In this document: positions 43,712 through 56,765 of the stretch, piece after piece | How the letters are laid out: each line of letters opens with the position of its first letter | Numbering within the stretch: position 1 is the first letter of the stretch | Assembly (NCBI GenBank): GCA_963758295.1 | Contig: CAVWUU010000001.1 | Coordinates: forward strand, 32,001 to 96,000 | Direction: 5' to 3' | DNA length: 64,000 nucleotides | Source: Candidatus Eremiobacteria bacterium | GTDB taxonomy: Bacteria > Vulcanimicrobiota > Vulcanimicrobiia > Vulcanimicrobiales > Vulcanimicrobiaceae | Translations under genes and position numbers: made by a program | The notes under the pieces: model-generated | What the model was told of the DNA's origin: nothing | Database searches by the model: none | The model's input: the letters and a program-made list of their open reading frames with translations, nothing else

Positions 43712-44392
43712 ATGAATCGTTCGCAGCGCGGGTTTGCCACGATCGAACTGCTGGTCTCCGCGGCAATAGCGTTCTTCCTGATCTGGGGCCTAATCGCAGT
43801 CGCCAATCGCTGCGCGGCATGGGCAGCGTCCGAAAATGCAACGCTTGCCGGGCAGAGCGCTGCGGCTACGCTCGCGGAGCGGCTCGGAAGCGAGGCGGAC
43901 AGCTCCTGGGCCGTCTTCGTTCCCACGAACGACGTCCTCGGCGCATCGAACGGGGACGGACATGAAGTAGATTTTTTCACCGAGGACGGCGCACATCGAC
44001 CTTTCGCATGGGCATACCGCTACGATGCTGCCTCCAGGCTCGTCACGCGTTACAGCTATGCCCCTGGCATTGGTGCGCAGGCTGGTGAATCCGCCGGTCC
44101 GTTTGATTCGTTTGCAGCCGTTGCGGTCGCCGCGCCGAGCATCACAGCGGACCGGCTCTTTGCCGGCGCATCGGTTCCCGGCGTGCAATACCACTTCGAC
44201 ACCATGCCCGAAGCGATCGGCGGAAACGGCTTAGTGCACGTGGCGATTCGCGCGCGCGGTATCGTGGAGAACGAAATGCTGGCGAGTGCGACGGCGCCGA
44301 CCTCTTTTACCGTCGTTCTGAATTACACGCCGGCTCCGCCGCCCGCAACGCCCACGCCTGGGGCGATTCCGACGTTGACGCCTACGCCGTAA
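43712..44392 (+). CDS. Type IV pilin-like / pseudopilin protein
   Basis: Class III signal QRG|FATIELLV followed by a hydrophobic helix, with a Pro/Thr-rich C-terminal tail. Confidence 0.7.
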   Translation: MNRSQRGFATIELLVSAAIAFFLIWGLIAVANRCAAWAASENATLAGQSAAATLAERLGSEADSSWAVFVPTNDVLGASNGDGHEVDFFTEDGAHRPFAWAYRYDAASRLVTRYSYAPGIGAQAGESAGPFDSFAAVAVAAPSITADRLFAGASVPGVQYHFDTMPEAIGGNGLVHVAIRARGIVENEMLASATAPTSFTVVLNYTPAPPPATPTPGAIPTLTPTP

Positions 44393-45005
44393 CCGAAGCG
44401 CGCTCCATGAGTTCGGCGAGGGCCGCGTCATTTTCGCGATTTGTCGACCGCAGGCCGGCGATTGCGCCGTCACGATCTTCGGCCGCACGATTTTGACTCA
44501 GTTTAAACTTCACGTCCAATGCATCGACCGTGAAATGTACACCGACGATGCCCTTCAGCTGCGATTCGATGTACTTCGGATTCGCGGAGTCGATCGACCA
44601 CGCGTCCTCACCGTCGCCTTCGTTGATTTCCGTGAGCAACTGAAGAATCTGAAGCGTTTCTTCATCGCCGGTGACGCGCGCCGATGCGCTTACATGGACG
44701 ACGGCATAGTTCCACGTAGGAACGTTGTCCGGTGGTTCGACGTACCAACGCGGCGAAATATAGCCATGCGGCCCGTGAAACAGTAGCGTTGCGCCGCACG
44801 CTTCAACGTCTTTCCAATGTCGGTTCGCGCGCGCAAAGTGCGCACCAACGATCAATTGCGGCGTTTGGGCGACAATGACGCACGGCAGATAAGAAATGCG
44901 CGGATTGCCCTCAACGATGCTTACGATCGTTGCGAAGGGATACTCGCGCATGAGGCGCACCGCGTCGTCTTGCCCCGTTATGCGAAAAGGCACCGGTACG
45001 TACAT
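44382..45005 (-). CDS. PaiB-like FMN-binding negative transcriptional regulator family
   Basis: MYVP..F, HFARAN, GPHGYISPRWY, VPTWNY and KFKLSQNR motifs. Confidence 0.9.
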   Translation of the reverse strand: MYVPVPFRITGQDDAVRLMREYPFATIVSIVEGNPRISYLPCVIVAQTPQLIVGAHFARANRHWKDVEACGATLLFHGPHGYISPRWYVEPPDNVPTWNYAVVHVSASARVTGDEETLQILQLLTEINEGDGEDAWSIDSANPKYIESQLKGIVGVHFTVDALDVKFKLSQNRAAEDRDGAIAGLRSTNRENDAALAELMERASVTA

Positions 45006-45053: not shown

Positions 45054-46304
45054 CTAGAAGGCCGTGATGCCGTTCGGCGTTCCGACGCCTGTTGGACCGT
45101 CGTAGCCTTTGCCGGAATGGCAGATATACGTAATCGTGCATGTGCCGTTGCTGCCGCTAACGACGTCGTTCAACGAAGCCGTACCTAGATGTTTCCAAAG
45201 GCTTTGCGCCGCGATCAGCGTTTTTGCATTTCCCGCAAGGGCGTAGACGGACGCGACGATCGGACTCGACGTGCTCGTTCCTCCGAATACGAGCCAGCCG
45301 GAATAGCCGTTGACCGGGATGCTGTCGTAGACGGCGACGCCCGTATTGGGATCGGCAACGGCCGCAATGTCGGCTTCGGAACGTTTATGACACGTGAGAT
45401 CCGTCTGCCATGCCGGCTTGGTCACGTACGCGCTGCAGCCGCTGCCGCTTCCGCTCCATGCCGTTTCGCTCCAGCCGCGTGTCGTGGAAGAACGTCTGAG
45501 AGTCGTTCCGCCGACGCACACCACGGTTGCATACGAACACGGTTGATGCGCGCCATAGCCGCTGTCGCCCGATGATGCGGTGATAATGACGCCCGCGTGC
45601 GAATACGATGCGTTGGCCGAGACGTATTCGCTGCCGTCGTAGCTATTGCTCACTTCCGTCGCGCCGAGTTTGACCGCTTCGTTTACCGCTGCAGCCAGGT
45701 TCGTTGATGCAGCGGTGGACGCTTCGACGAGAAGAATGTGACAGTTCGGACACGTCGCCGAAACCATATCCAAATCGAGCGAAATCTCTTGCGCCCACCC
45801 TGGATTTGCAGCCGGAAGTGCGGTTGCGCTACCGGTTTGGCCAACTTTGCGGAAACAGCCATTGGCGATCGTGCAGGCCGGCAGTGCGAAGCGCGTGCGA
45901 TATACGGCTAAATCTTTGGCCGCATTCGGATCGTCGTACGCATCGACGATTGCGACAGTTTGGCCGTGGCCGCCGGTCGACGACGGAAGTTTGTATGCGC
46001 TTTGAATCGAGGATGGCCCGTAGCCAGGAGGTGCGCTTATGGCTTCGGCGCTTTCGCGGCCCGGCGGCGCGAGATCGGTGCGAAATTCTGCATCGCATCG
46101 CATGTCGTCGCCCGGTAATAACGCAGCGCACGACTGCATGACGTTCGCCGCAAGCGTTGCCGGCGCACTATCGAGCGACGGAACGACACCTAACGGAGAA
46201 GATGAGTTTGCGCCGCTACAAGCGGCCAACAGCAGAGCAACGGCCGCTCCAAAAAAGAAGCGTGGAAAATGAAGGCGGGACAAGTGGGGAACCTCCTGGG
46301 ACAC
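45054..46304 (-). CDS. S53/S8 (sedolisin-like) serine peptidase, lipoprotein
   Basis: EISLD, SSGDSG, VGGT and GGTSTSSP motifs, Ca-binding GYDGPTGVGTPNG, lipobox LAAC. Confidence 0.88.
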   Translation of the reverse strand: MSQEVPHLSRLHFPRFFFGAAVALLLAACSGANSSSPLGVVPSLDSAPATLAANVMQSCAALLPGDDMRCDAEFRTDLAPPGRESAEAISAPPGYGPSSIQSAYKLPSSTGGHGQTVAIVDAYDDPNAAKDLAVYRTRFALPACTIANGCFRKVGQTGSATALPAANPGWAQEISLDLDMVSATCPNCHILLVEASTAASTNLAAAVNEAVKLGATEVSNSYDGSEYVSANASYSHAGVIITASSGDSGYGAHQPCSYATVVCVGGTTLRRSSTTRGWSETAWSGSGSGCSAYVTKPAWQTDLTCHKRSEADIAAVADPNTGVAVYDSIPVNGYSGWLVFGGTSTSSPIVASVYALAGNAKTLIAAQSLWKHLGTASLNDVVSGSNGTCTITYICHSGKGYDGPTGVGTPNGITAF

Positions 46305-46343
46305 CCATTGAACCCGCTGCTCCGTGGTTGCGTCAAGAGTTTG

Positions 46344-47150
46344 TTACATTTTTCCCTGTTTTACGCAACTGTACAGAGCTAAATAGCAATCAGGCGCAAT
46401 GTCGAGCGTCGCTTGAATGGGCGTAACTTCGCACGAGCCCAGTTTCTCGTGAAAGATCAAAAACGGCGGCGTCTTTGCGGGAATGATAATCTGCCACCGG
46501 TCCCATGCCGCGCGAAATTCGGGGCTTTCTCGCATGACGCTTAAGAGTTCTTCGAAATGCGTGTCGCCGCGATACTTGCAATAAAGCGCGCGGAAACTTG
46601 CTACCGCGTTGATCGAAACTTTCTCCCAATTTACGTACAGCTTGCGCCGCGCCGGATCGAAGAACATGCGCCACAGCAAATTGCGTTCGAGCGGTGAGCT
46701 GCCCGCGTGATAATCAAAGATCTCCTCGGTGAAAGCGTTCCACACCAGCAGGTCCAAGCGCGGCGTCGCAATGTACGCCGGTGCATGCACGTGCGACTCA
46801 ACGAGCGTACGCAACACGTTCGGAACTCCCGGGTTGAGCGTGCAGCGTTGCGGCTCCTCACGCAACAGCGTGTGCATGAAGTCGATTTCGGAATCACTGA
46901 ACCGCAGTGCAGTGCCGATCTTATCCAACACTTCCGGCGAAATGTTGATAGGGCGCGCTTGCTCGATCCAGGTGTACCACGTGGTAGAAATTCCCGCGAG
47001 CGACGCGACTTCTTCGCGGCGCAATCCCGGAACGTGGCGGCGCGTCGTTTGCGTCAGGCCGACGTCCAGAGGCCGCACGGACGAACGCCGCGCGCGCAAA
47101 AAGGCCGCCAGATCTTGACGCCGCGCGTCCGCGACAAGGGTATCGAGCAT
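46344..47150 (-). CDS. XRE-family HTH regulator with MmyB-like ligand-binding domain
   Basis: LAAFLRARR, PGLRREEVA.LAGISTTWYTWIEQ.R and RNLLW.MF.DP motifs. Confidence 0.9.
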   Translation of the reverse strand: MLDTLVADARRQDLAAFLRARRSSVRPLDVGLTQTTRRHVPGLRREEVASLAGISTTWYTWIEQARPINISPEVLDKIGTALRFSDSEIDFMHTLLREEPQRCTLNPGVPNVLRTLVESHVHAPAYIATPRLDLLVWNAFTEEIFDYHAGSSPLERNLLWRMFFDPARRKLYVNWEKVSINAVASFRALYCKYRGDTHFEELLSVMRESPEFRAAWDRWQIIIPAKTPPFLIFHEKLGSCEVTPIQATLDIAPDCYLALYSCVKQGKM

Positions 47151-47233
47151 CGAACTCGGTCTCCGTGGGTAGCTGCGGTACTAGTATTGCTGAGGGCCTT
47201 GTTTACCAGGCGGGCCTGACGTAGCCTGCTAAC

Positions 47234-47566
47234 ATGAGCGCTTCGCTGCGCGCGACCGTAGTTGGACTTCGTCACGTAGAAGACGAGGTGAGTCTGGCGC
47301 GTTCCAAACCGAGCAAGCAGGCCTTGGACACGATCTCGCAAGTTCTGGTTAACGTCAGCGGAGCACGCGAGCAATTGCGCGAGGTCCACCAGAGTGCGGC
47401 ACCCGAGCGCCGGAAGCAGCTCTCACGCGCCTTGCAGCATCTCGAAAGCGCCCTGGAAGCGGCGAATACCGCTCTCCGGCCCGGCGGCGAAGACCGGCTT
47501 CAAGGCTGCCTCAACGAGATCGTCGAGCACCTCGTCATCGCGACGACCTGCGCCTCGGACGAGTAG
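47234..47566 (+). CDS. Hypothetical helical protein
   Basis: 110-aa ORF divergent from the regulator, preceded by a TAGCCT -10-like hexamer. Confidence 0.5.
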   Translation: MSASLRATVVGLRHVEDEVSLARSKPSKQALDTISQVLVNVSGAREQLREVHQSAAPERRKQLSRALQHLESALEAANTALRPGGEDRLQGCLNEIVEHLVIATTCASDE

Positions 47567-47605
47567 CAGCAGCCGCTCCGCCCGCACCGCGGGTATGCAA
47601 AGAGC

Positions 47606-48493
47606 GTGATCTACGAGCTCTGCGGCCATCGCATCGACGTTCCGCACGCGACCAAGGTTCTCTGGGCCGGACCCCGCTATACGGTTGACGATCTAATTCG
47701 TTACTACACGGCCGTCTGGCCCTGGATGGAACCCTACCTAGCCGATCGTCCGGTTGTCTACGAAACGTTTCCCGGTACGATCGACGGCCCGCACGACTTC
47801 CAACAGGATCCGCCGCCGCACACTCCGCGGTGGATAAAGCGAGTAAAGATCGCCGGCCGGGAACGCACCGTCACGTACGTCGTCATCGATACGCCGGCCG
47901 CAATCGTGTATTTGGCCGGTCTTTACGCGGTTACGCTCCATGTTTGGATGTCAACGACGCGCGCGATTGAGCGTCCCGACTTTCTGCTGCTCGACCTCGA
48001 TCCCGGAATCGACTGCACGCTGGCACGCCTTGCGCGCGTTTCGTTGATGGCGCGCGATATCTTCAAAACAAACGGCTTCCGCGACGTCAGGGTAAAAAGT
48101 TCGGGCGCCAGCGGTTTGCACGTTTCGGCAGCGCTTGAATCGAAAGAAGCGTATCCGGCAGCTCGAGCTGCCGCGCGCGGGCTTGCGGCACAGCTCTTTG
48201 AAATGCTGCCGCGCGACGTAACACTGGAACGCGCAATTAGCGTTCGTCCGTCCAATGCGGTTTACGTGGACTTCAATCAAATGGGACGTGGAATGACGAT
48301 CGTTCCACCGTTTTCTGCGCGCGCGTCCAACAACGCGTCGGTCGCCATGCCCCTCACTTGGGATGAAATCGACGAACACGCTCGGAGCAAAAGCCGCCGG
48401 CCGCCGGCGGGCGCGCTTGCCCGCTATACGATTAAGAGCGCCGTTCCGTTCCTGCAACGGCACGGCGATCCGTGGATGCGCGACGTTCGCTAA
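47606..48493 (+). CDS. Standalone LigD polymerase (primase-like) domain
   Basis: YY..V...M.PYL.DRP, RPD..LLDLDP, KSSGASGLHV, VYVDFNQ and PFSARA...VAMPL.W.E motifs. Confidence 0.88.
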   Translation: MIYELCGHRIDVPHATKVLWAGPRYTVDDLIRYYTAVWPWMEPYLADRPVVYETFPGTIDGPHDFQQDPPPHTPRWIKRVKIAGRERTVTYVVIDTPAAIVYLAGLYAVTLHVWMSTTRAIERPDFLLLDLDPGIDCTLARLARVSLMARDIFKTNGFRDVRVKSSGASGLHVSAALESKEAYPAARAAARGLAAQLFEMLPRDVTLERAISVRPSNAVYVDFNQMGRGMTIVPPFSARASNNASVAMPLTWDEIDEHARSKSRRPPAGALARYTIKSAVPFLQRHGDPWMRDVR

Positions 48494-48544
48494 AACTCTT
48501 CCAAGCAAGTTCAGCGCTTTGCATCGCCTTCCGATGCACAACTT

Positions 48545-49801
48545 ATGGCCCGCGGTGTTTTGCAACTGCGCGATTTTCGCATGCTCTTAGGCGGACAATT
48601 CGTTTCGGATTACGGGCGGCAGCTTTCGATTTTTGCGCTGCCGACAATCGCCATTTTGAGTCTCCATGCACCCGCGTTGACCGTTACCGCGATCAACGGG
48701 CTTGAGTGGGCCGTAATTCCGCTCTTCGCTTTGATTGCGGGGGTGCTGATCGACCGTTGGCAGCGACGACGAACGATGATTGCCGCGAACATCATCCGGA
48801 CGATCGCCCTTGCGACCATTCCCGTAGCCGTCTTCTTTCACGCGCTTTCGGTAGCGCAACTGTTCGCCACGGCGCTCGTCGTGAGTCTCGCGTCGCTGTT
48901 TTTCGACACGGCATATCAACCGTTTCTCGCGTTCCTCGTCGGAAGGCAAGCCTACGCTGAAGGCAACGCGCGGATGACTATGAGCTATTGCGTGGCAAGC
49001 GCCCTAGGCAACGGCACAGGCGGTCCGATAGTTCAAGCGCTAGGCGCTCCGCTTGCCGTTCTCACGAATATCACGACGTACATTACCGGCACGATCGCTC
49101 TTCTCTCGATTCGAAAGCCGGAGATGCGCATTCAAGCGTCCGAGGATCGTTCTTTCCGGCGCGAGTTCCGTGAAGGAGCGCGCATCGTGTGGGGAGATCC
49201 GCTTCTTCGCCGGCTCGCCTTTACGTCGGCGACCTTTTATTTTGGCGGATCGATCGTGGACGCGGTGCTTCCGCTCTACGTCTACCGCTCGCTGCATCAG
49301 ACGCCGCTGTTCTTCGGCGCGATTCTCGCGGTGGCGAGTTGCGGGCTGTTCGGCGGCGCGCTTGCCGCGCGTCTGGCGAAGCGCGCAGGCGCGCTGTCGT
49401 TGTTGCCGTTCGCCATCGTGCTCGTTGCGATCGGGCACGCGATCACGACGGCTGCGGTGCTGCCGGTCGCGGCGATTCTCATCGGCCGCACGCTAATCGC
49501 TTGTGCCGCGCCCACGTACGACGTCATGGTGCAAACGATTGCCACGGAACGCGCTCACGATCATCAACTCGGCCGACTGAACGCGGCCATGCGGACGATT
49601 ACGAATGCCCCGATTCCGCTCGGCTGTATGCTCGGTGGCTTTCTGAGCGGCTTCATCGGATTTCACGGCGCAATGCTTTTCGGTGCGTCCGCGTGCCTAG
49701 TGAGTCTCGTCGTCTTCCTCGCTCTGCAAGCACAAACGGGTAGAAACGATTCGTGCTTGCCCTCGACGACGCCGATCTCCGCAATGCAGTCCGCCGCCTA
49801 G
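48545..49801 (+). CDS. MFS transporter
   Basis: About 12 TM helices with motif A GVLIDRWQRR and FFDTAYQ. Confidence 0.9.
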   Translation: MARGVLQLRDFRMLLGGQFVSDYGRQLSIFALPTIAILSLHAPALTVTAINGLEWAVIPLFALIAGVLIDRWQRRRTMIAANIIRTIALATIPVAVFFHALSVAQLFATALVVSLASLFFDTAYQPFLAFLVGRQAYAEGNARMTMSYCVASALGNGTGGPIVQALGAPLAVLTNITTYITGTIALLSIRKPEMRIQASEDRSFRREFREGARIVWGDPLLRRLAFTSATFYFGGSIVDAVLPLYVYRSLHQTPLFFGAILAVASCGLFGGALAARLAKRAGALSLLPFAIVLVAIGHAITTAAVLPVAAILIGRTLIACAAPTYDVMVQTIATERAHDHQLGRLNAAMRTITNAPIPLGCMLGGFLSGFIGFHGAMLFGASACLVSLVVFLALQAQTGRNDSCLPSTTPISAMQSAA

Positions 49802-50862
49802 CGGTCGATCCCGCGATTGCGGGACGTTACCGCTTAGACCAGGTAATCGAACGCAATTTCGCGGCGCTCGCAAAAATGGCCGAAATGCGGCCGCCCTTGC
49901 AATTTGGTTACAGCGTCAAGACGAACCCCGATCGCGCATTCGTCGCTGCCGCACGTAGCGCCGGGCTCTTTGCAGAAGTAATCAGCCCGCAAGAATTAGC
50001 GCTCGCTTTGGAATTCGGCTTCGGGACGCGGACGATTTATAACGGTCCGTGGCCTGCGTGGCGAGCCGGCGCTTCTCCCGGGATTGTCTTCGCTGACAGC
50101 CTGCAAGCTTTCAACGAAAACGCGCGCCGTTTACCGGACGCTTTGTGCGGCCTTCGTGTGCGACCGGCGAGGATCGAATCGCGCTTCGGCGTTACGCGGG
50201 AACAACTTGGTGAAGTAATTCAGGCGGTTCGTGCGGCCCAGCGCAGTCGCATCGCCGTTTCGTTTCACGTGCGTCCCGAAGATTACGGCGATCGCAGCTG
50301 GCGCGACATCGTTCAAGAAGTCGCAGCTTTCGGCAGGGAGCTAGAACGGAACGCGAGCGCGCGAATTGTCGCCTTCGACGCAGGCGGCGGCCGCACGCCG
50401 GGAGATTTTGACCAAGGTATCGCGGCAGGCGACCTCGCTTGGTTAGCGCAGACCATCACGACGGAGTTGTCCGCCGTCGAAGCAATCTATATGGAGCCGG
50501 GACAAGCGGTCGCGACGCCATGTGCCGTCTATGTCGCTCCGGTGTTGGAACGTCGCCCCGGTGAAGCGATCGTAGCAGCCGGTTATCCGGAGGTCTCGCA
50601 GATTCACGCCTTTCCGCACCGGGTGCTTGCTATCCATGCCGATGGGGAAGTCGAGATGCTGCAAACCGGTGCGGATCGTATATTAGGCAGAACGTGTCTC
50701 GAGTATGACGTCATTCGCAACGACGTTCACCTGCCGTCATCAATGGAGTCTGTAGTAGCAATCGTCGTAGCCGATGCGGGCGCATACGACTCCAGTATGG
50801 CTTTTAGTTTTTCCCTTGGTGGGAATAAGAAGCGCGATGACCTCGGAGCTCCCGGACGCTAG
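49753..50862 (+). CDS. PLP-dependent fold-type III decarboxylase (Orn/DAP/Arg family)
   Basis: YSVKTNP (PLP Lys), AEVISPQE, IYNGP, SRFG, DAGGG, EPG, GRTCLEYD and DAGAY motifs. Confidence 0.85.
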   Translation: MLALDDADLRNAVRRLAVDPAIAGRYRLDQVIERNFAALAKMAEMRPPLQFGYSVKTNPDRAFVAAARSAGLFAEVISPQELALALEFGFGTRTIYNGPWPAWRAGASPGIVFADSLQAFNENARRLPDALCGLRVRPARIESRFGVTREQLGEVIQAVRAAQRSRIAVSFHVRPEDYGDRSWRDIVQEVAAFGRELERNASARIVAFDAGGGRTPGDFDQGIAAGDLAWLAQTITTELSAVEAIYMEPGQAVATPCAVYVAPVLERRPGEAIVAAGYPEVSQIHAFPHRVLAIHADGEVEMLQTGADRILGRTCLEYDVIRNDVHLPSSMESVVAIVVADAGAYDSSMAFSFSLGGNKKRDDLGAPGR

Positions 50863-51802
50863 TTACATCCTTCCGATACGCGCCGCGACAACCAAGCACG
50901 TATCGGAACTCGCCGCTTACTTAGAAACTCTTCAGAATGTCCAAATCGTCGTCGTCGACGCGTCGGAAGACTCGGTCTTTACTACGCATCAAGCCGCTTT
51001 TGGACCGTCGATCGTGCACGTCCGTCCCGACGGCGATATCGTCGGTGCGAACGGAAAAGTTCGCGGCGTTCTAACGGCGCTTCGCTATGTGGCGTGCGAA
51101 AAGATCGTTATTGCCGACGACGACGTTCGTTACGACCGGTGGTCGCTTCGCGCCGTACTTATAGCCTTAGACGATTTCGACATCGTGCGACCGCAGAATT
51201 ACTTCTCGCCGGTGCCGTGGCACGCCGTCCTCGATACGTCGCGCACGCTAATCAATCGTGCACTCGACGGCGACTGGCCCGGAACGCTTGCGTTCAATCG
51301 TTCTTTCGCGCCGCGCGGATACAACCCCGACGCACTATTTGAAAATCTCGAACTCGTTCGGACGGTGAAGGCACGCGGCGGCCGCGAAGCGGTGCGGCGC
51401 GACATTTACGTGCGCCGGCTTCCGCCTGCAACGGATCATTACTTCAGCCAACGCGTCCGGCAAGCGTATGACGAATTCGCGCGCCCCACGCGCCTCGCAA
51501 TCGCGCTCGCCATTCTGCCGGCGTGTATTGCAGGATTTGCGACCGGCCGCGCATGGATTGCGGGCGCCATCGCGCTTGGAGCCATAGCGATGGCGGCCGT
51601 TGGACTAATGACCGGGAACGGATACCGCTATTTTCCATGGATATCGGCGCTCGCGGCACCGCTTTGGGTGGCGGAACGCGCCGGATGCGCGTGGCTTGCG
51701 CTCTATGAACGTATTAGGTTCGGCGGCGTGCGCTATGCGGGCCGCATTGTGAAACATGCCGCGTCGTCGGAACGGGAGCTGCGTCAAAAATGGGCGGTCT
51801 GA
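50837..51802 (+). CDS. GT-A (family 2-like) glycosyltransferase with C-terminal TM helices
   Basis: YILP, VVVDAS, NGKV.GV, IADDDVRY and a QRVRQ (QxxRW-like) motif. Confidence 0.8.
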   Translation: MTSELPDASYILPIRAATTKHVSELAAYLETLQNVQIVVVDASEDSVFTTHQAAFGPSIVHVRPDGDIVGANGKVRGVLTALRYVACEKIVIADDDVRYDRWSLRAVLIALDDFDIVRPQNYFSPVPWHAVLDTSRTLINRALDGDWPGTLAFNRSFAPRGYNPDALFENLELVRTVKARGGREAVRRDIYVRRLPPATDHYFSQRVRQAYDEFARPTRLAIALAILPACIAGFATGRAWIAGAIALGAIAMAAVGLMTGNGYRYFPWISALAAPLWVAERAGCAWLALYERIRFGGVRYAGRIVKHAASSERELRQKWAV

Positions 51803-52581
51803 GCCCGCAACAGTCGCTCTCGCTTTACGCGAGCAAAAATCCCTTCGCAACCGAGTCGGCGCATCGCTGGAGCAATTACTCGGCCTATCTGGACGGCACG
51901 CTCGTACGGCTGCTCGATTGGCGTGAGCCGTCGGGACAGGCCAAGATGGCGCACCACGCGTTGCGTTCCTTCGTTCTTCACGAGCGCTTCTCGTGCGTCG
52001 GCGCAAAGGGCGCTTTCAGCAGCGGCGGGTACCGTTATGGCTTTTACGACGATTTCCCAACGCCAGGCGTCGAAGGGTTGGCTCGCGATTTAGCCGCGTT
52101 CGTTGCGGAGCTTCCGCACATGACCGAGAAGTACAAGTCGTTCGTAGCGGTTTTCAACGCACAGTCGTACGACGAAACGCACTTTGAACGGCAGCTCTGG
52201 CAGCAACTCCAAACGCTGCATGAAGTGGATCGTCGCTATTTTGATTGGAACGAGGAAGTTTCAAGCGATCCCGCGGATTCGCGATTTGCGTTCAGCGTAG
52301 CGGGACACCCGTTTTTCGTCGTCGGTATGCATCCGGGCGCATCGCGCCTGTCGCGGCGGTTCGCCTTTCCTACCCTGGTCTTCAACTCACACCAAATGTT
52401 TGAAGGCCTAAAGCAATCGGGCCATTTTCAGCGCATTCAAGAACACGTGCGGGCGCGCGAAATCGAATTGCAAGGGTCACTTAATCCGAACTTGGCCGAC
52501 TATGGTATCGCAAGCGAGGCGCGCCAATACTCCGGCCGCGCGGTTGAGGAAAGCTGGAAGTGTCCGTTTCACCGGTCTTGA
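51790..52581 (+). CDS. YqcI/YcgG family heme-dependent guanidino N-hydroxylase (GntA/DcsA-like)
   Basis: FSCVGAK, FERQLWQQLQ.LH, SSDP....FAFS..G.PFFVVGMHP..SRLSRRF.FPTLVFN.H and SEARQYSGR motifs. Confidence 0.85.
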   Translation: MGGLSPQQSLSLYASKNPFATESAHRWSNYSAYLDGTLVRLLDWREPSGQAKMAHHALRSFVLHERFSCVGAKGAFSSGGYRYGFYDDFPTPGVEGLARDLAAFVAELPHMTEKYKSFVAVFNAQSYDETHFERQLWQQLQTLHEVDRRYFDWNEEVSSDPADSRFAFSVAGHPFFVVGMHPGASRLSRRFAFPTLVFNSHQMFEGLKQSGHFQRIQEHVRAREIELQGSLNPNLADYGIASEARQYSGRAVEESWKCPFHRS

Positions 52582-53144
52582 CGCGCCTGGAGCCGCAAAC
52601 CGGGACGGCGGTCGTTCTCCGCGCCGGTGAGACATTGCGCATTGTAGATCCATGCGGCGAGCAGGTTGCCGACGTGGCGATTTTCTCGCTTGCCGACCCG
52701 CGCGACTCATTTTCGCCGGGCCGCACGATGGACTATAACGAGCGGCTGGTCCCGCAAATCGGCGATATGCTGTATTCGCACCGCAGCACGCCGCTGATGC
52801 GCGTCACCGCCGATACTGTCGGCGTGCACGATCTTCTGTTAGCGCCATGCAGCGGAACGATGTTCGCACGACGAGGCGAGCTCGATCATCGAAGCTGTCA
52901 CGAGAACCTTTATAGCGCGCTCGAACCCTTCGGACTCGATTCCGACGATGTCGCGGCAACGCTGAACGTCTTCATGGACGTGCGCGTGGAACAAAACGCG
53001 ATTCGCCTCTATCCGCCGCCCAGTAAAGCCGGCGATTCGTTCGAGCTCACCGCCGAAATCGATTGCATCGTCGGAGTTGCGGCGTGCTCGTCCGAATTGA
53101 CGAACAACGGCCGGTGCAAACCGATCTGTTTTAGCGTGATCTAG
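52560..53144 (+). CDS. DUF1989 urea-carboxylase-associated family protein
   Basis: L.IVD..GEQVAD, DTVGVHDLLLAPCS, CHENL, LNVFM and ACSSELTNNG motifs. Confidence 0.88.
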   Translation: MSVSPVLTRLEPQTGTAVVLRAGETLRIVDPCGEQVADVAIFSLADPRDSFSPGRTMDYNERLVPQIGDMLYSHRSTPLMRVTADTVGVHDLLLAPCSGTMFARRGELDHRSCHENLYSALEPFGLDSDDVAATLNVFMDVRVEQNAIRLYPPPSKAGDSFELTAEIDCIVGVAACSSELTNNGRCKPICFSVI

Positions 53145-54490
53145 TTTTCGGACGTGGGGAAGCGCATCGTGACGCGCGTTCCCTGGTGCGGGCCGCTTTC
53201 GAGCGAGATGGATCCGCCGACGCGCTCAACGGCGCGCTTCGCAATGGCAAGACCAAGTCCGGAGCCGTCGACTTGCGTGCGTGACGTGCCGCGGTAAAAC
53301 CGATCGAAGGCGTGCTCCACATCGACCGACTGCATGCCGGGACCGTTATCGGAGACGACGATTTGGGTGCCCGGTCCGGCGTCTTCAACCCTCACTTGAA
53401 TCGGCGACTCGGGCGCGTAGCGTACCGCATTTTCGACGACGTTCTTGATCGCTTCATAAAGTTCGGTATCGTCGGCAACGACCGATGCCGTGCCGTCGCC
53501 TTGAAATTCAATGCGATCGCCGGCGAGCGGACGCAGCGCGTCGACCGCGCGGGCAGCGACGGAACTCAGATCCACTCGCTCGAGCGACCGTTCCGGTTCG
53601 CGTTCCATCCGGGCCAGCAAGATTAGTTTTTCGATGATGGTCCGCATTTTGCGCGTTTCATCGAGCATCGTCTCGTGTACGCGGCCCACCGCGTCAGAAT
53701 CTTTAACGACACCCTGGCGCAGCGCATCTAAATACCCCATGAAAATCGTCAACGGAGTGCGCAACTCGTGCCCGGCATCCGCGATAAACTGTCGCATTTC
53801 CGCCGACTGGCGCTGTTGTTCGGCGGTGGCTGCGTTCAGCCGGTAGGCGACATCGTTATATGCCGCCGTAAGATCGTAAAGACCGGAGCCGTGCTCCAGG
53901 AGCAGCTTCGGCGTGAAATCGCCGCCCGCAATGCCGCGAAGCGCGCCCGTTACATCGGAGAGCGGTGAAATGGCGCGCCGCGTAATCGCGCGGCCGACAA
54001 TCCAGGCGATCAACACGCAAATTGCGCCGATCGGCGCCATGATCGACCAATAATGCGCAATCGAACGGCCAAACGCGTCGAAGTCCGGCTGCATCACGAC
54101 GAAACCGCCGCTAACGCGCAGGATCCGGCGATGGACGTTCATCAGTTCGGCGAGACTGCGGCCGACGGAGTCGGGATGATCGACGTAGTTGCCCGCTAAA
54201 CGGGTTCGCTTCGCGTCGTAAACCCCAATGTGAATGCGTGAGTGTGCTTCGTCGTTCGCAAGGCTTTTCGCATATTGTTGGAGCGTTTTATGCTGCGCCT
54301 GATAATACACGACGCGCTGCGTTACGCGTGCCGTCGCGCTATCTACGCTGTCATTCAAGGAGCCGGCGTAGCTAATGAACGCTAGAATCGAGGAAGCGCC
54401 GACGACGACCGCAATCAGCACGACTGCCAGAACGACGTACCCTGCCGTTAGGCGCCGCGCGAAGGGCCGAAATCGCGGTTCACTCGGCAC
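53141..54490 (-). CDS. HAMP sensor histidine kinase
   Basis: Two TM helices, HAMP, AGHELRTPL, NAVRY, DNGPG and GSGLGL motifs. Confidence 0.92.
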   Translation of the reverse strand: MPSEPRFRPFARRLTAGYVVLAVVLIAVVVGASSILAFISYAGSLNDSVDSATARVTQRVVYYQAQHKTLQQYAKSLANDEAHSRIHIGVYDAKRTRLAGNYVDHPDSVGRSLAELMNVHRRILRVSGGFVVMQPDFDAFGRSIAHYWSIMAPIGAICVLIAWIVGRAITRRAISPLSDVTGALRGIAGGDFTPKLLLEHGSGLYDLTAAYNDVAYRLNAATAEQQRQSAEMRQFIADAGHELRTPLTIFMGYLDALRQGVVKDSDAVGRVHETMLDETRKMRTIIEKLILLARMEREPERSLERVDLSSVAARAVDALRPLAGDRIEFQGDGTASVVADDTELYEAIKNVVENAVRYAPESPIQVRVEDAGPGTQIVVSDNGPGMQSVDVEHAFDRFYRGTSRTQVDGSGLGLAIAKRAVERVGGSISLESGPHQGTRVTMRFPTSEN

Positions 54491-55163
54491 GAATCGTATA
54501 CCCGGCTCCGCGAACGGTTTGGATCAGCGGCCGGCGGAAGCCGTCGTCGATCTTTCCGCGCAAATAGGATATGTAACGCTCGACCGCATTCGTTCCAACT
54601 TCCTTATCGTTACCCCAGACCAGATCCAACAATTCGTCGCGCGTGAAGACGCGGCGCGGACGGCGAATAAGCGTGGTAAGCAAATCAAATTCGAGCGGTG
54701 AAAGGTCGACACGCTTTCCGGCTCTGGTTACCGTGTGTTCGTCGAGATTCACGAGCACGTCGTCGTAGCTAAGAATGTTGCGCTGTTCCAGCCGCGGGCG
54801 GCGCAGCTTCGCCTCCAAGTGTGCGAGCAGCTCGGACATTTCAAACGGTTTGGACAAGTAATCGTCCGCGCCGTGGCTCAATCCCTCGACTTTGCTTTCC
54901 ACTTCACCGCGGGCCGAAAGCATGATTACCGGCGCTTCGGTCACGCGTCGAAGCATGGGCAGCAGCTCGATGCCGCTGATCATTGGCATCATGACGTCGA
55001 GCACGATCAAATCCGGTTCCCAATCGCGAACGAGTTCAAGGCCGGCAGGCCCATCGGGCGCGGTGCGCACGGCGTAGCCATGGTGCCCGAGAGTCAGTTC
55101 AAGTAACTCGCGGATCCTCGGTTCGTCGTCTATTACGGCGACGCGCGGTTGGAGGTCGGTCAT
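54480..55163 (-). CDS. OmpR/PhoB-family response regulator (MprA-like)
   Basis: REC domain plus winged helix (LSPLEFDLL, YISYLRGKID, IQTVRGAGY). ATG at 55163. Confidence 0.93.
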   Translation of the reverse strand: MTDLQPRVAVIDDEPRIRELLELTLGHHGYAVRTAPDGPAGLELVRDWEPDLIVLDVMMPMISGIELLPMLRRVTEAPVIMLSARGEVESKVEGLSHGADDYLSKPFEMSELLAHLEAKLRRPRLEQRNILSYDDVLVNLDEHTVTRAGKRVDLSPLEFDLLTTLIRRPRRVFTRDELLDLVWGNDKEVGTNAVERYISYLRGKIDDGFRRPLIQTVRGAGYTIRAE

Positions 55164-55189
55164 TCTGCTCCAAAATCTATCGCGTGAGC

Positions 55190-55207
55190 TTGAAAGCGGC
55201 TTGAGAG
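55190..55207 (-). promoter_or_regulatory. Putative OmpR-family tandem direct-repeat box upstream of the response regulator
   Basis: TTGAAAG (55190) and TTGAGAG (55201) are 11 bp apart, with a TAGATT -10-like hexamer downstream on the minus strand. Confidence 0.4.
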
Positions 55208-55357
55208 GCGCGCTTGGCTTTCTTGCAAACGCGGTTTCCGGCAAGGCGCTGCGGTGGTCCTTACCGCGATCGTTTCCCTTCCACACCCCTTCGACCATTT
55301 GCTTCACATACGCGCACTTCACACGCTGCGCGAAGTTTCGGTCGGATATCGGCGGTG

Positions 55358-55723
55358 ATGCGCAATATCGTTCCTTCGCGACCGACGTCGCCGGCCCGGC
55401 TCTCGGAGCGCGCGAATGCCGCTATACAAGGCGGACTGCTGCGCTTTCACGTGGACACGCGGCGGTTTCAACCGTATACAACATCGAGTATTATTTGTTC
55501 TTACGCCCGCTCGAAAAGCTCGACGTCCCACACGTACGCAGAAGCGCGGCAATCGTTGGCGGCCGCATTATTCGCGCGCTTGGAGATTCACAAAGCGGAC
55601 ATTTTTCGGCGTGGCATCAACGATGATCCAGACGTGCTCGACTGCGTCGCGGGGCGCTTATTGCGACGCTTGACGTCACGACCATTCGACTATTTTCGCG
55701 GCAAGGCGCACACGTGGGCGTAA
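55358..55723 (+). CDS. Possible small hypothetical protein
   Basis: Open frame filling the intergenic gap, with no recognisable motif. Confidence 0.3.
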   Translation: MRNIVPSRPTSPARLSERANAAIQGGLLRFHVDTRRFQPYTTSSIICSYARSKSSTSHTYAEARQSLAAALFARLEIHKADIFRRGINDDPDVLDCVAGRLLRRLTSRPFDYFRGKAHTWA

Positions 55724-55844
55724 TACGGCGTCCTTTCACAACGACTAGGTGCGAAATGCATCTAAGCCACCGCTTTCCTAAGAACTAGGGTTCCAAGCAA
55801 GCAGCGTGCAATTTCGATGGACCTTGCTATGGAGGGGTGTCCAC

Positions 55845-56765
55845 ATGCATTTGGGTCGATCGCGCACTTTCAATTCCACGTCCGTCGCCTTGTTTTGTTC
55901 GCTTCTCGCCGCGTGCGGGGGCGGTGGAGGATCGAGCGGCGGTGGTTCGTTGCCGGGGCCCACGCCTTGTCCATCGGGCTTTACCGGTAGTCCGCCGAAT
56001 TGCACCGCACGTCCGACGACGACGACGGCAAAAGGCACGTTGGTCGACGACGTTTCCGGCGCACCGCTTTCCGGCGTGAAAGTCGAAGTGCAGCCGTGGA
56101 CTACCTATCCTACGCCCGGCCCGAGCCCAACGCCGATCGCCGTTTCCACGACAGCAGCGGATGGTTCGTTCACCGTCTCGCAACCGAACGGCACGTACAT
56201 GCTAGTGATTGGCTCCGATAGTTCGAGCGACACCGTTCGCCCGACCATCCACGACAAAATCACGCTCAACGGCCAAACCACTCTCATCGCTCCCACGCCG
56301 GCGCCTTTTCCGTTGGTGACGCCTTCTGCGATTCAACTAAGCGGCCACTATCGTCTGGCAACGCTTGACCCAACCGCAGAATTGCCTTGCGTTACGAGCT
56401 TCCAGGGGCAGCGCGTTTCTCGCTCGCTTTCAAACCGGTTGTTGACCAGTGGTTAGCTCGAGAATAACCGGCTCGACTTTGCGATAGTATCCAATGTCGC
56501 GTTTTCCGGAGGAATGGCTTCAGCGAGTAATCCGTACGCGTTTTAACTCTCGTACCTATCACGTCTCGGAGCAGGGTATTTCGAGCTGTGCTTCGATCGC
56601 TGCGGATGCCCTGGCACTAAACTTTCGACGCATCTCAAGCGGGCGTTATATGGATATGGTGGCCTTTACCGAGCTTATCAAAACGGCGGTGAAGGTTTGG
56701 GCGTTCTTCAGTATCCAGAGGATCCTCGAATAGTCGTCGATCCGAACGCGATAAGTTGGTATTAG
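55845..56765 (+). CDS. Lipoprotein with carboxypeptidase-regulatory-like domain and possible CAP-like C-terminus; frameshifted after ~56435
   Basis: GGAGGG RBS, lipobox LAAC, GTLVD..SGAPLSGVKV...TTAADGSF. Protein-like continuation in shifted frames ends ...DPRIVVDPNAISWY at TAG 56765. Confidence 0.55.

Follow-up and report, generated by a model that had tools for sequence, protein, structure and literature searches.

The window (the whole 64,000-nt stretch of DNA that was analyzed) contains, at 48545-53144, five open reading frames on the same strand, each overlapping the next. They are predicted to encode an MFS protein (48545-49801, + strand, 418 aa), a fold-type III PLP decarboxylase (49753-50862, +, 369 aa), a membrane GT2 glycosyltransferase (50837-51802, +, 321 aa, or 342 aa from an alternative start at 50774), a YqcI/YcgG heme protein (51790-52581, +, 263 aa) and a single DUF1989 protein (52560-53144, +, 194 aa). 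The overlaps described in an earlier note on this DNA were confirmed and measure 49, 26, 13 and 22 nt with the start codons proposed there. Comparison with orthologs supports those starts: the alignment of the decarboxylase to its nearest ortholog begins at residue 2, glycosyltransferase homologs of 317-321 aa span 98-100% of the 321-aa form, and orthologs of the YqcI and DUF1989 proteins start at identical residues. The nearest relative, locus L004, has the identical five genes with equally small overlaps. We conclude that the five genes are real and conserved, and that a chance pattern of open reading frames is excluded.

A promoter scan returned no promoter-like site, and terminator-like sites occurred at chance level. 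Upstream lies a gene for an MmyB-like HTH protein (46344-47150, - strand; PF17765, 99 bits, and PF13560), homologs of which are found upstream of the cluster in five related loci, with two copies in one of them. Convergent with the operon are genes for a histidine kinase (53141-54490, -), the end of which has a 4-nt overlap with the DUF1989 stop, and for an OmpR/PhoB-type response regulator (54480-55322, -), both with Pfam and NCBIfam matches; orthologs of the pair (62-95% identity) occur 0-6 kb downstream in eight related loci. The MmyB-like protein is a possible regulator of the operon, as are the kinase and response regulator. Elsewhere, a pentapeptide-repeat gene follows the DUF1989 gene in the L006 group, a polysaccharide deacetylase gene lies downstream in L092, and a PLD/cardiolipin-synthase-like gene precedes the YqcI gene in operons of Gemmatimonadota.

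The MFS protein and the decarboxylase

The MFS protein matched PF07690 (MFS_1, 110 bits) and PF05977 (MFS_3, 85 bits) in Pfam and, in NCBIfam, TIGR00900 (155 bits, under its cut-off) together with weak matches to the Mef(A), Tap, EntS and Tet(V) models; it is probably a DHA3/EntS-like exporter. An ortholog (at least 40% identity) adjoins the cluster in 7 of the 80 loci that were retrieved through the glycosyltransferase, and we regard the gene as a lineage-specific accessory.

The decarboxylase scored 34.1 bits against PF02784 (Orn_Arg_deC_N; cut-off 23.4), and its residues K56, G211-G213, E248, C315 and Y345, which line up with the PLP-Lys, GGG, EPG, Cys and GAY motifs in DAP decarboxylase, are invariant in 15 orthologs. 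The best solved match of the ortholog profile was N-citrylornithine decarboxylase (7kh2, 97 bits), which acts on an N-delta-acylated ornithine, followed by DAP decarboxylases (82-84 bits) and BtrK (81 bits). Is this gene, as the earlier note considered, simply the only LysA of the genome? The answer is mixed: it is the sole match to the lysA model in the assembled genome, yet at 35.6 or 51.6 bits it falls far under the cut-off of 297.9, and four of five cluster-carrying relatives have a true LysA elsewhere (335-367 bits). On these grounds we rejected its identification as LysA; the protein can be assigned, from its motifs and profile scores, as a divergent fold-type III PLP enzyme. It lies beside the glycosyltransferase in 23/80 loci, and in 8 of the 13 genomes with the GT2, YqcI and DUF1989 genes (hereafter the trio) in a sample of 151 genomes of the phylum, and is an accessory of the Eremiobacterota-type cluster. 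Decarboxylation recurs by non-homologous enzymes, fold-III in type A loci and Pyridoxal_deC in type B loci, and the decarboxylase adjacent to the glycosyltransferase in Gemmatimonadota and Thermoanaerobaculia is nearest to aromatic-amino-acid decarboxylases (DOPA decarboxylase 7xin, E 1.8e-104). Because an enzyme of this kind replaces the fold-III decarboxylase in Gemmatimonadota, the case for arginine as the only precursor is weaker.

The YqcI and DUF1989 proteins

The YqcI protein scored 206 bits against PF08892 (YqcI_YcgG) and 277.6 bits against NF041366. In the alignment to AglA (9ub3), C69 corresponds to Cys44, R189 to Arg166, and F176/F177 and F204 to Phe152 and Phe182, which in AglA are the thiolate Cys, the propionate-binding Arg and a Phe pair (PMC12866846); C69, R189 and F204 do not vary across 28 orthologs. 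We assign the protein, by its family matches and predicted heme site, as a thiolate-heme protein of the guanidine N-hydroxylase family. It exceeds the cut-off of the NCBIfam GntA model, a label that we reject as over-annotation.

The DUF1989 protein (PF09347, 163 bits) reached 88 bits against the UAAP2 model (cut-off 285) and 71 bits against UAAP1 (cut-off 206), and its best solved relatives were 3oru (77.5 bits) and TMAO demethylase, Tdm (9q59, 51.8 bits). Residues D38, D91, C97, H110, C113 and C176 are invariant in 28 orthologs and, in a mapping taken from the alignment, correspond to conserved Asp, His and Cys residues of Tdm, where roles are described for D198, C263, H276, C279 and C343 (PMC12560246). 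It is predicted to be a single-subunit zinc enzyme. That it stands alone, with no carboxylase partner, as the earlier note had it, was borne out across the genome (82% complete), which has one DUF1989 match and no urea carboxylase over the cut-off.

Could the operon then encode an O2-dependent catabolic or detoxifying route, in which N-hydroxylation by YqcI replaces ATP-dependent carboxylation, DUF1989 hydrolyzes the product and nitrogen is released, with the glycosyltransferase, decarboxylase and MFS protein serving uptake, salvage or a side function? The only characterized DUF1989 enzymes, TMAO demethylase and, reportedly, carboxyguanidine deiminase, are catabolic, the YqcI-DUF1989 pair occurs without this glycosyltransferase family in two genomes (G018 and G320, at loci L086 and L084), and since our genome shows no guanidine or urea carboxylase over the cut-off, it could use such an alternative. 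We consider this route unlikely, though by no means far-fetched, because fusions of the glycosyltransferase with YqcI in both orders and its strict co-occurrence in the phylum sample (see below) are hard to explain by it, no urease, allophanate hydrolase or amidase gene lies beside the cluster, the MFS protein resembles drug and siderophore exporters rather than importers, and a search of the window for Rfam elements, guanidine riboswitches included, yielded none.

The membrane glycosyltransferase

Profile HMMs confirmed the families named in the earlier note for the other four proteins and missed the glycosyltransferase, for which neither Pfam nor NCBIfam gave a match at default thresholds (GT21 and GT2_3 appeared sub-threshold only); even so, that assignment too proved right. 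Its homologs carry PF13641, PF13506 or PF00535 and are named family 2 glycosyltransferases, and its AlphaFold2 model (mean pLDDT 91.8) had as top Foldseek matches PcManGT (6yv7, E 2.4e-10), BcsA, ArnC, RmlT, hyaluronan synthase, DPMS and GtrB. On the strength of these domains, names and fold matches we assign the gene, despite the silence of the HMMs, to the membrane GT2 enzymes, with a predicted GT-A domain, DDD motif and C-terminal helices. No variation occurs among 28 homologs at D94, D96 and Q205-R206-x-R208-Q209, and an invariant Q in place of the W of a QxxRW-like motif speaks against a polysaccharide acceptor.

Such an enzyme raises the question of envelope tailoring, in which the GT2 would, like HpnI, ArnC or DPMS, produce a glycoconjugate that is lipid-linked or resides in the membrane, and YqcI and DUF1989, joined by decarboxylase, methyltransferase or PLD-like partners, would alter a nitrogen-bearing substituent of the glycolipid or glycan. 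The fold matches PcManGT, BcsA, ArnC, DPMS and GtrB act on lipid or polymer acceptors, 24 of the 28 homologs match the HpnI model weakly, fusion of YqcI to a membrane glycosyltransferase puts the oxygenase at the membrane, and the PLD-like and deacetylase genes of other loci would fit. However, the trio has no conserved neighboring gene for a flippase, a GT-C enzyme or a lipid carrier, the exporter in the window is of the drug/siderophore type, and the six characterized YqcI enzymes, according to PMC12866846, all use soluble arginine derivatives; we therefore rate envelope tailoring as improbable.

The conserved unit

Both YqcI and DUF1989 are present in 72 of the 80 glycosyltransferase loci and at least one of them lies beside the glycosyltransferase in 76; of the other four, two are truncated by the contig end. 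These loci span at least six phyla (Eremiobacterota, Gemmatimonadota, Chloroflexota, Acidobacteriota, Dormibacterota and Actinomycetota), and adjacency is kept through several gene orders: GT>YqcI>DUF; GT> facing <DUF<YqcI; YqcI>DUF>GT; and DUF<YqcI<DC facing >GT. In the phylum sample the distribution is patchy (about 10%): YqcI occurs in 15/151 genomes, with DUF1989 immediately adjacent in 14 of them, and all 13 genomes with the glycosyltransferase (E <= 1e-30) carry YqcI directly beside it. Fusion proteins were also found, in the orders GT-YqcI (n=3, 70-77% mutual identity) and YqcI-GT (n=1) and as YqcI-DUF1989 (n=3, 48-52% mutual identity, with three more among the best 150 representative clusters). 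Because they are adjacent in 14/15 genomes and occur fused, YqcI and DUF1989 can be taken as a functional pair.

The conserved unit is the trio and not all five genes. Of the five-gene set proposed earlier, the trio stood, being near-universal in the glycosyltransferase loci, and the five-gene unit, given the counts for the decarboxylase and MFS genes, did not. In other lineages the trio is joined by an aromatic-amino-acid-decarboxylase-like enzyme and a PLD-like protein, or by a methyltransferase. That the five genes might be functionally unrelated neighbors, for which one can say just that compact genomes generally pack unrelated genes tightly, is contradicted for the trio by its cross-phylum conservation, co-occurrence and fusions and is barely credible to us.

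In some actinobacteria, glycosyltransferase loci without YqcI have a PF14518 diiron protein, adjacent (L062, L079) or fused (Microbispora P0132-P0134), whose sole solved relatives are the N-oxygenases SznF, HrmI and RohS. The replacement of the SznF HDO domain by YqcI has a published precedent (preprint 10.1101/2024.01.24.577118).

Might the product be reactive nitrogen itself (NO/HNO, hydroxylamine or hydroxyurea) generated from N-hydroxyarginine for stress signaling or growth control, with the glycosyltransferase as an effector such as an exopolysaccharide synthase? DcsA/DcsB reportedly offer a precedent for hydroxyurea, and in L086 the pair without the glycosyltransferase has genes for a GGDEF protein and a hemerythrin at its flanks, but an NO- or hydroxylamine-forming activity of DUF1989 has no support in our results, the invariant Q argues against a polysaccharide acceptor, and the decarboxylase and methyltransferase partners are left unexplained. 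We judge this very improbable, even though YqcI, as ChmN illustrates in that preprint, carries out the first half of NO synthase chemistry (Arg to N-hydroxy-Arg).

A candidate biosynthetic pathway

Each enzyme of the trio retains its catalytic residues. We favor, at about an even chance, a biosynthetic module anchored in the membrane, in which a guanidino compound is N-oxygenated, hydrolytically opened, glycosylated and exported; the operon would be a lineage-specific elaboration of a widely conserved three-enzyme module, with the exporter and the PLP decarboxylase as additions. The three enzymes would cooperate on the cytoplasmic side of the membrane, where YqcI, drawing on O2 and on electrons supplied by a housekeeping ferredoxin system, may N-hydroxylate a guanidino group, either that of arginine or that of a decarboxylated or side-chain-modified derivative, and so render an otherwise inert guanidine hydrolyzable. 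DUF1989, by analogy to the carboxyguanidine deiminases, could then open the N-hydroxylated guanidine to an N-hydroxyurea- or urea-type product, and the decarboxylase would strip the alpha-carboxylate from the precursor or from the DUF1989 product. The GT2 might glycosylate the N-oxygenated product or build its glycosyl or lipid-linked acceptor, and the MFS protein would export the outcome, presumably an N-oxygenated, guanidine-derived glycoconjugate from a small biosynthetic cluster. The order suggested earlier (decarboxylation, N-hydroxylation, hydrolysis and/or glycosylation, export) is plausible, and all chemistry in the favored scheme is inferred.

In favor of a biosynthetic module are the co-occurrence of the trio, its breadth across phyla, its retained adjacency and fusions, its conserved catalytic residues, the recurrence of decarboxylation by non-homologous enzymes, the N-oxygenase-type PF14518 partner where YqcI is absent and a set of traits typical of biosynthetic clusters, namely the DHA3/EntS-like exporter, the MmyB-like regulator, the patchy distribution and the pentapeptide-repeat gene of the L006 group. 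Against it are the aromatic-type decarboxylase of other lineages, which is at odds with a scheme from arginine alone, the catabolic roles of the characterized DUF1989 relatives (for carboxyguanidine deiminase, by repute), the pairs without this glycosyltransferase family, the usual preference of membrane GT2 enzymes of this fold for lipid or polymer acceptors over small polar molecules, the lack of a reductase or ferredoxin gene within the operon, the rarity of the MFS gene and the missing promoter-like site. The earlier note knew of no characterized pathway with this gene set; none was found in the literature searched, nor any paper linking these families. The trio, kept together and at times fused in many soil bacterial phyla, marks an uncharacterized pathway.

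Comparison with known systems

The CgdAB guanidine carboxylase pathway reportedly shares with the operon the DUF1989 fold and a guanidine that carries an electron-withdrawing N-substituent before hydrolysis, but CgdAB is said to have two paralogous subunits near a biotin carboxylase, whereas here there is one subunit and a heme oxygenase partner. In the D-cycloserine pathway, DcsA, a YqcI enzyme, is said to N-hydroxylate arginine, after which the hydrolase DcsB frees hydroxyurea for O-alkylation. The sequence of N-hydroxylating a guanidine and then hydrolyzing it would be the same; the differences, again by repute, are an arginase-family hydrolase, O-acetylserine rather than a nucleotide sugar as electrophile, and no glycosyltransferase.

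FslC (the N-citrylornithine decarboxylase of rhizoferrin), BtrK and DAP decarboxylase share the fold type and all catalytic motifs with the operon decarboxylase, which is shorter (369 aa against 420-448 aa), scores just 97 bits with its best profile match and lies far below the LysA cut-off. Tdm has a DUF1989 domain with the conserved Cys, His and Asp and a substrate that is an N-O compound, but is about 790 aa long with extra DUF1989-like and GCV_T domains, against 194 aa here (PMC12560246). AglA, GntA, DcsA, ChmN, AmbT and Mhr24 are of the same Pfam family as the operon YqcI, which keeps the AglA heme-site residues although direct similarity to AglA is only 31 bits; their pathways, listed in PMC12866846, are those of argolaphos, guanitoxin, D-cycloserine, chalkophomycin, ambocidin and miharamycin, and for none of them is a DUF1989 or membrane GT2 partner described. 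The SznF-type diiron (HDO) oxygenases resemble the PF14518 partner of the actinobacterial glycosyltransferase relatives, and exchange between YqcI and HDO has its published precedent in ChmN; in our case a cupin domain is absent, nothing points to N-nitrosation, and the partner is a glycosyltransferase. Finally, PcManGT, BcsA (its GT domain), ArnC, DPMS, GtrB and HpnI share the GT-A fold followed by membrane helices and the DxD motif, but sequence identity is 9-17%, the operon glycosyltransferase is over the cut-off of no named family (for its homologs, the best NCBIfam match is only E 1e-07) and, unlike these membrane GT2 systems, its family is fused or paired with N-oxygenases.

Results

Organization of the Operon and Its Surroundings

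The operon at 48545-53144 (forward strand) has as its core a conserved module of known enzyme families, and its five-gene form is a lineage-specific variant. Five overlapping same-strand genes had been described in the earlier note, and we find the same arrangement: an MFS transporter (gene 1, 48545-49801; open reading frame and PF07690), a fold-type III PLP decarboxylase (gene 2, 49753-50862; open reading frame and PF02784), a predicted membrane GT2 glycosyltransferase, GT (gene 3, 50774 or 50837-51802; open reading frame, homologues and predicted fold), a YqcI/YcgG protein (gene 4, 51790-52581; open reading frame and PF08892) and a DUF1989 protein (gene 5, 52560-53144; open reading frame and PF09347), all on the forward strand and overlapping by 49, 26, 13 and 22 nt with the start codons of that note. 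Alignments of orthologues support these starts for four of the genes: the decarboxylase fits its nearest orthologue and is alignable from residue 2, the 321-aa form of the GT is 98-100% covered by homologues of 317-321 aa, and the YqcI and DUF1989 orthologues share start residues with the window proteins. The nearest relative, locus L004, has the identical five-gene set with equally tight junctions, and GC content is even over the operon region, at about 0.60. The genome assembly itself amounts to 3.03 Mb in six contigs and is 82% complete; judged by the source names of homologues, it is that of a Baltobacteraceae-like member of Eremiobacterota (Vulcanimicrobiota).

The transporter matches PF07690 (MFS_1) at 110.4 bits against a cut-off of 33.4 and MFS_3 at 85 bits; below threshold, it also matches NCBIfam models for the DHA3 family and for the exporters Mef(A), Tap, EntS and Tet(V). 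An Rfam scan of the whole window returned no match, and therefore no guanidine riboswitch. A promoter scan of 46000-56000 found no promoter-like site, and terminator-like sites at chance level, which makes it uninformative on the operon boundaries.

Several neighboring genes deserve mention in their own right. A stand-alone LigD primase-polymerase domain gene (47606-48493, forward strand; PF21686, 210 bits) stops 52 bp short of the start of the MFS gene; since none of the 80 related loci described below, L004 included, gave a tblastn match to it, its place next to the operon appears to be genome-specific. A PaiB-family gene (44382-45005, reverse strand; FMN_bind_2, 149 bits), placed 3.5 kb upstream of the operon, was rejected as a cluster member because it is kept only in L004, as local synteny. 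The 416-aa protein encoded at 45054-46304 (reverse strand), which has no Pfam match, is a secreted sedolisin/kumamolisin-like peptidase. A homologue 45% identical to it occurs just downstream of DUF1989 in a Chloroflexia locus (L073:13197-14360), probably by coincidence, and with weak matches outside that locus the peptidase was not counted as part of the cluster. Farther away, a 708-aa protein (56809-58935, reverse strand) has a prepilin-type methylation motif at its N-terminus (PF07963; TIGR02532) and no further recognized domain, and in the stretch at 18001-20000 the GC content rises locally to 0.654, against about 0.60, and the AT skew is strongly negative (-0.219).

Conservation of the Trio Across Loci and Phyla

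Most close relatives of the window YqcI sit with DUF1989 and the membrane GT, paired or fused, over six phyla. This was seen after 28 GT homologues had been aligned and 80 loci fetched with them from species-representative genomes, in which relatives of the window proteins were located by tblastn; all locus counts rest on tblastn because clustering of open reading frames in these high-GC loci gave antisense shadow ORFs. YqcI and DUF1989 both lie beside the GT in 72 of the 80 loci and at least one partner does so in 76; the four single-partner loci end within 800 bp of the GT. Two of the four loci with neither partner (L063 and L074) end 78 and 82 bp past the GT, and the other two (L062 and L079) are intact. 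The 80 loci come from Eremiobacterota, Gemmatimonadota, Chloroflexota (Ktedonobacteria, Chloroflexia and Dehalococcoidia), Acidobacteriota, Dormibacterota, Rubrobacter and one MAG labeled as Gammaproteobacteria.

Four arrangements recur. In type A, of Eremiobacterota and some Acidobacteriota, the order is decarboxylase-GT-YqcI-DUF1989 with the MFS gene in front in some cases. Type B, of Gemmatimonadota and Thermoanaerobaculia, has a Pyridoxal_deC decarboxylase divergent from the GT and facing a convergent PLD-like-YqcI-DUF1989 operon. In type C, of Chloroflexota, Rubrobacter and Dormibacteria, a SAM methyltransferase precedes GT-YqcI-DUF1989. Type D, of Acidimicrobiia, has the GT adjoining a PF14518 "iron-containing redox enzyme," and YqcI is absent genome-wide. 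The order YqcI-DUF1989-GT was also seen, in genome G474. Of the synteny that a five-gene pathway implied, the part concerning the GT stands almost everywhere, but the rest does not: the fold-III decarboxylase occurs in 23 of the 80 loci (one more, in a divergent arrangement, in locus L038) and the MFS gene in seven. Two Chloroflexota loci (L092:7023-8324 and L054:11726-13147, both reverse strand) have YqcI and DUF1989 split, in one case by an IS transposase gene and in the other by an MFS sugar-transporter-type gene. A gene for a pentapeptide-repeat protein (PF00805, 199 bits) directly follows DUF1989 in an Eremiobacterota locus (L006:12344-13054) and holds the same position in four others. 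Such proteins can serve as immunity factors in known antibiotic clusters, and by that analogy the neighbor hints at a possibly toxic product.

The distribution was also followed in genome samples, in which related genomes are not mutually independent. In the sample of 151 genomes from the phylum of the window genome, with hits placed by coordinates and a GT threshold of E <= 1e-30, 15 genomes carry YqcI, 16 carry DUF1989 and 13 carry the GT; each count given here for this sample includes an unpublished genome (G128) and drops by one without it. In 14 of the 15 YqcI genomes DUF1989 directly adjoins YqcI; the exception (G092) is a 1000-contig assembly with the two genes on separate small contigs. 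All 13 GT-bearing genomes carry YqcI with the GT directly alongside. Genome G018 has the YqcI-DUF1989 pair without the GT, as its locus L086 confirms, and two genomes (G039 and G121) have tandem DUF1989 pairs without YqcI, presumably of the classical two-subunit type. Strong matches to the cluster decarboxylase occur only beside the GT, in eight of the 13 GT genomes, with two weak matches elsewhere.

Among 201 Chloroflexota genomes, eight have YqcI and six of these have the GT beside it; intact DUF1989 is nearby in five, fragments are present in one, one locus is cut by a contig end, and one distant YqcI has neither GT nor DUF1989. The 201 Actinomycetota genomes include three with YqcI over the cut-off: one with the trio (GT, YqcI and DUF1989) plus a methyltransferase, one with YqcI alone and one with YqcI-DUF1989 without this GT family, where a GT4 and a Glyco_transf_7C protein are encoded 1.5-5 kb upstream. 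The Pfam families of YqcI and DUF1989 both match in the control genomes of Bacillus subtilis and Deinococcus radiodurans. B. subtilis ycgG and ycgI may form the same YqcI-DUF1989 pair, a lead on which our literature search found nothing relevant.

Gene Fusions

The association extends to single polypeptides. Pairwise identity among the three GT-YqcI fusions that we examined is 70-77% across some 600 residues, and at least 11 proteins among the matches listed carry both domains, some of them on contigs of 3.7 and 4.8 Mb; one protein (P0142) has the reverse order, YqcI-GT. Three YqcI-DUF1989 fusions share only 48-52% identity, and these fusions suggest that the product of YqcI is the substrate of DUF1989 or vice versa. 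A search of 1.84 billion representative proteins yielded 894 YqcI relatives at E <= 0.001 and 235 at E <= 1e-30; 13 of the best 150 of the 894 were at least 330 aa long, and these 13 include three further YqcI-DUF1989 fusions and one GT-YqcI fusion. The fusions are not sequencing artefacts, since they diverge from one another, are seen in both orders and turn up again in independent samples. A putative GT-YqcI-DUF1989 triple fusion (P0147) was set aside, as it shows domain fragments only and is probably a frameshifted assembly. Four proteins (P0123, P0125, P0126 and P0127) have YqcI C-terminally fused to a B3_4 domain (PF03483), which is related to the editing domain of the PheRS beta subunit, in place of DUF1989; they suggest a different second step or an amino-acid-binding partner.

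The GT has other partners as well. In cultured Microbispora it is fused to a PF14518 diiron domain (P0132-P0134), and its further fusion partners are DUF2231 plus Rieske (P0138), an alpha/beta hydrolase (P0144) and a catalase domain (P0146), so that this GT family seems habitually to team with redox enzymes. For the PF14518 domains that adjoin the GT or are fused to it, all six solved relatives are N-oxygenases (three distinct SznF sequences, HrmI and two distinct RohS sequences). According to one preprint, the YqcI enzyme ChmN replaces the SznF diiron domain in guanidine N-oxygenation (10.1101/2024.01.24.577118), and the same exchange appears to have taken place beside this GT. Together, the PF14518 relatives and the ChmN/SznF exchange support N-oxygenation as the reaction that is conserved in the partners of the GT, the nitrogen probably being of the guanidine type.

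Identity of the Encoded Proteins

The active-site residues are intact in all three trio proteins. The YqcI protein matches PF08892 at 206.4 bits (cut-off 27), and its only solved relative is AglA (9ub3, 31 bits), with which it aligns so that AglA Cys44, Arg166, Phe152 and Phe182 correspond to C69, R189, F176-F177 and F204. The AglA report describes Cys44 as the proximal haem thiolate ligand and Arg166 as propionate-binding, with Phe152 and Phe182 sandwiching the arginine side chain (PMC12866846). All 28 orthologues aligned have C69, R189 and F204, and at least 90% of them have F176. The assignment to the YqcI/YcgG N-hydroxylase family that had been read from the sequence is thus borne out by PF08892 and the predicted counterparts of the AglA active-site residues.

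The more specific name GntA fares differently. The NCBIfam GntA equivalog NF041366 scores 277.6 bits on the window protein against a cut-off of 145 and matches 28 of 28 trio-type YqcI orthologues from six phyla; the 13 window proteins scanned gave no other match to a gnt-named NCBIfam model. The neighbors of YqcI are MFS, PLP decarboxylase, GT2, DUF1989 and a two-component system, and none of the loci from the six phyla is guanitoxin-like. A GntA identity was therefore rejected on genomic context, there being no guanitoxin cluster, and the name "GntA" on trio-type YqcI proteins is an over-annotation. NF041366 is likely a source of systematic misannotation, and its use will leave harmless soil bacteria annotated with an enzyme of a toxin pathway, that of guanitoxin.

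The DUF1989 protein scores 162.9 bits on PF09347; among solved structures it is closest to 3oru (77.5 bits) and to that same domain in the TMAO demethylase Tdm (9q59, 51.8 bits). Residues D38, D91, C97, H110, C113 and C176 are invariant in the orthologues and align with the Asp, His and Cys of the Tdm metal site, C97, C113 and C176 being conserved cysteine positions in both Tdm and 3oru. The zinc-site roles of these Cys, His and Asp residues in Tdm are described in the Tdm report (PMC12560246). With the domain and three predicted zinc cysteines present, gene 5 belongs to the DUF1989 family of zinc enzymes.

For the GT there is no family match in Pfam or NCBIfam at default thresholds: GT2-type Pfam models reach 16.6 and 16.1 bits, below their cut-offs of 21.7 and 27. 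PF13641, PF13506 or PF00535 is present in many close homologues, and in an AlphaFold2 model built with the 28 homologues (mean pLDDT 91.8) a GT-A domain leads into long helices that occupy residues 217-295. Foldseek matched this model, at 9-17% identity, to PcManGT, the BcsA GT domain, ArnC, RmlT, hyaluronan synthase, DPMS and GtrB, with probability 1.00 for PcManGT, BcsA, ArnC and DPMS. D94 and D96 of the DxD motif and a Q-R-x-R-Q motif are invariant in the alignment. The nearest named model is HpnI, which matches weakly (24 of 28 homologues, best E 1e-7), and the ESM Atlas gave generic GT2 clusters only. We conclude from the model that gene 3 is a predicted membrane GT2; the homologues' GT2 domains and the predicted fold bear out the earlier call of a glycosyltransferase.

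The decarboxylase matches PF02784 (Orn_Arg_deC_N) at 34.1 bits against a cut-off of 23.4, and when it is aligned with DAP decarboxylase and BtrK, the PLP lysine, GGG loop, EPG motif, catalytic Cys and GAY motif are all recognizable. K56, G211-213, E248, G250, C315 and Y345 are invariant in 15 orthologues and align with DAP decarboxylase motifs; the C-terminal PF00278 domain is sub-threshold in the window protein (13.8 bits) and scores 41 bits in the L038 orthologue. These motifs mark the product of gene 2 as a divergent member of the fold-type III PLP decarboxylases. LysA was rejected as its identity, TIGR01048 giving 51.6 and 35.6 bits against a cut-off of 297.9. The earlier concern that this might be the genome's only LysA has a basis in that the gene is the sole lysA-model match in the 82%-complete window genome, where no LysA was found, but its 35.6 bits fall far from the cut-off. 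Four of the five cluster-carrying relatives have a true LysA elsewhere, at 335-367 bits; in the fifth (G141, 97% complete) the only match to the lysA model is the cluster gene. Against solved structures, the orthologue profile scored N-citrylornithine decarboxylase (7kh2) highest at 97 bits, ahead of DAP decarboxylases (82-84) and BtrK (81). N-citrylornithine decarboxylase and BtrK act on amino acids with a modified side chain, and, given the small score margin, such a substrate for the window enzyme is a lead only.

Discussion

That the trio forms one functional unit we regard as very probable. What, then, might it do? YqcI probably N-hydroxylates a guanidino group, as its characterized members do. 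Since fusions attach it to either terminus of the GT, and the GT-A domain is necessarily cytoplasmic, YqcI would act beside the GT on the cytoplasmic side of the membrane. The guanidine carboxylase pathway uses an N-carboxy group on guanidine; an N-hydroxy substituent would, like it, expose the guanidine carbon to hydrolysis. By analogy with its relatives, the DUF1989 step may be hydrolytic, though at rather less than even chances in our estimate; a deiminase-type reaction would yield a product of the N-hydroxyurea or urea type. Either arginine or this N-delta-substituted, ornithine-like product could be the substrate of the fold-III decarboxylase, and the GT would glycosylate the product or supply its acceptor before export by the MFS transporter; that the GT glycosylates the small-molecule product is a tentative assignment, with perhaps one chance in favor for two against. 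The operon has no reductase gene; the fusion of the GT with a Rieske domain in P0138 is a hint of electron supply being organized at the GT.

We consider biosynthesis, as a whole, an evenly balanced proposition. Known DUF1989 relatives are catabolic and the YqcI-DUF1989 pair is found without the GT, both of which count against biosynthesis and leave room for a catabolic route, which we nevertheless think unlikely. Another point against biosynthesis is that GT2 enzymes of the fold matched by Foldseek usually use lipid or polymer acceptors, so that the trio might instead tailor the envelope, a role to which we give a low probability. In addition, the type B decarboxylase is nearest to aromatic-amino-acid decarboxylases (DOPA decarboxylase 7xin, E 1.8e-104), with NCBIfam matches all below cut-off; together with the three preceding observations it also keeps in consideration the generation of reactive nitrogen, which seems to us highly improbable.

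If the biosynthetic reading is taken to its furthest extent, the trio would be a membrane-anchored metabolon in which an N-oxygenase (haem YqcI, or a diiron HDO enzyme in some actinobacteria) is coupled to a minimal cellulose-synthase-like GT2, making DUF1989-opened or rearranged N-hydroxyguanidine, N-hydroxyurea or N-nitroso groups that are glycosylated and exported as they are formed. We put this forward as a speculative proposal that is more probably wrong than right by a wide margin. Were it true, many uncultured soil phyla would make an unrecognized class of small glycosylated N-O compounds, hydroxyurea- or streptozotocin-like in spirit. More broadly, the trio suggests an O2-dependent breaking or remodeling of the very stable guanidino group, and cultured actinomycetes, namely Microbispora with its GT-HDO fusions and Micromonospora coerulea, are available for working out the chemistry.

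How does the trio compare with known systems? The earlier note knew of no characterized pathway with this gene set, and a full-text literature search of main articles likewise found no paper linking the families; no paper among the full-text matches listed treats YqcI and DUF1989 together, and none was found in the full-text literature that links heme-oxygenase-like diiron enzymes with a glycosyltransferase. The note's observation of a single DUF1989 gene and no carboxylase also extends from the window to the genome (82% complete), which has one DUF1989 match and no urea/guanidine carboxylase over the cut-off, the best urea_carbox match reaching 482 bits against 1304 and covering the biotin-carboxylase part only. 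CgdAB and the urea-amidolyase-associated proteins consist of two paralogous DUF1989 subunits, whereas the window has one, which falls far below both cut-offs (88 bits against 284.7 for UAAP2 and 71 against 205.95 for UAAP1). Tdm, in turn, is DUF1989 fused to GCV_T in a protein of about 760-790 aa, whereas the window protein has 194 aa, and a Tdm identity was rejected (NF053776, 66.6 bits against 1100). The trio thus offers a testable physiological setting for two families whose described contexts are, to our knowledge, limited to six antibiotic or toxin pathways in the case of YqcI/YcgG enzymes and to guanidine and TMAO catabolism in the case of DUF1989.
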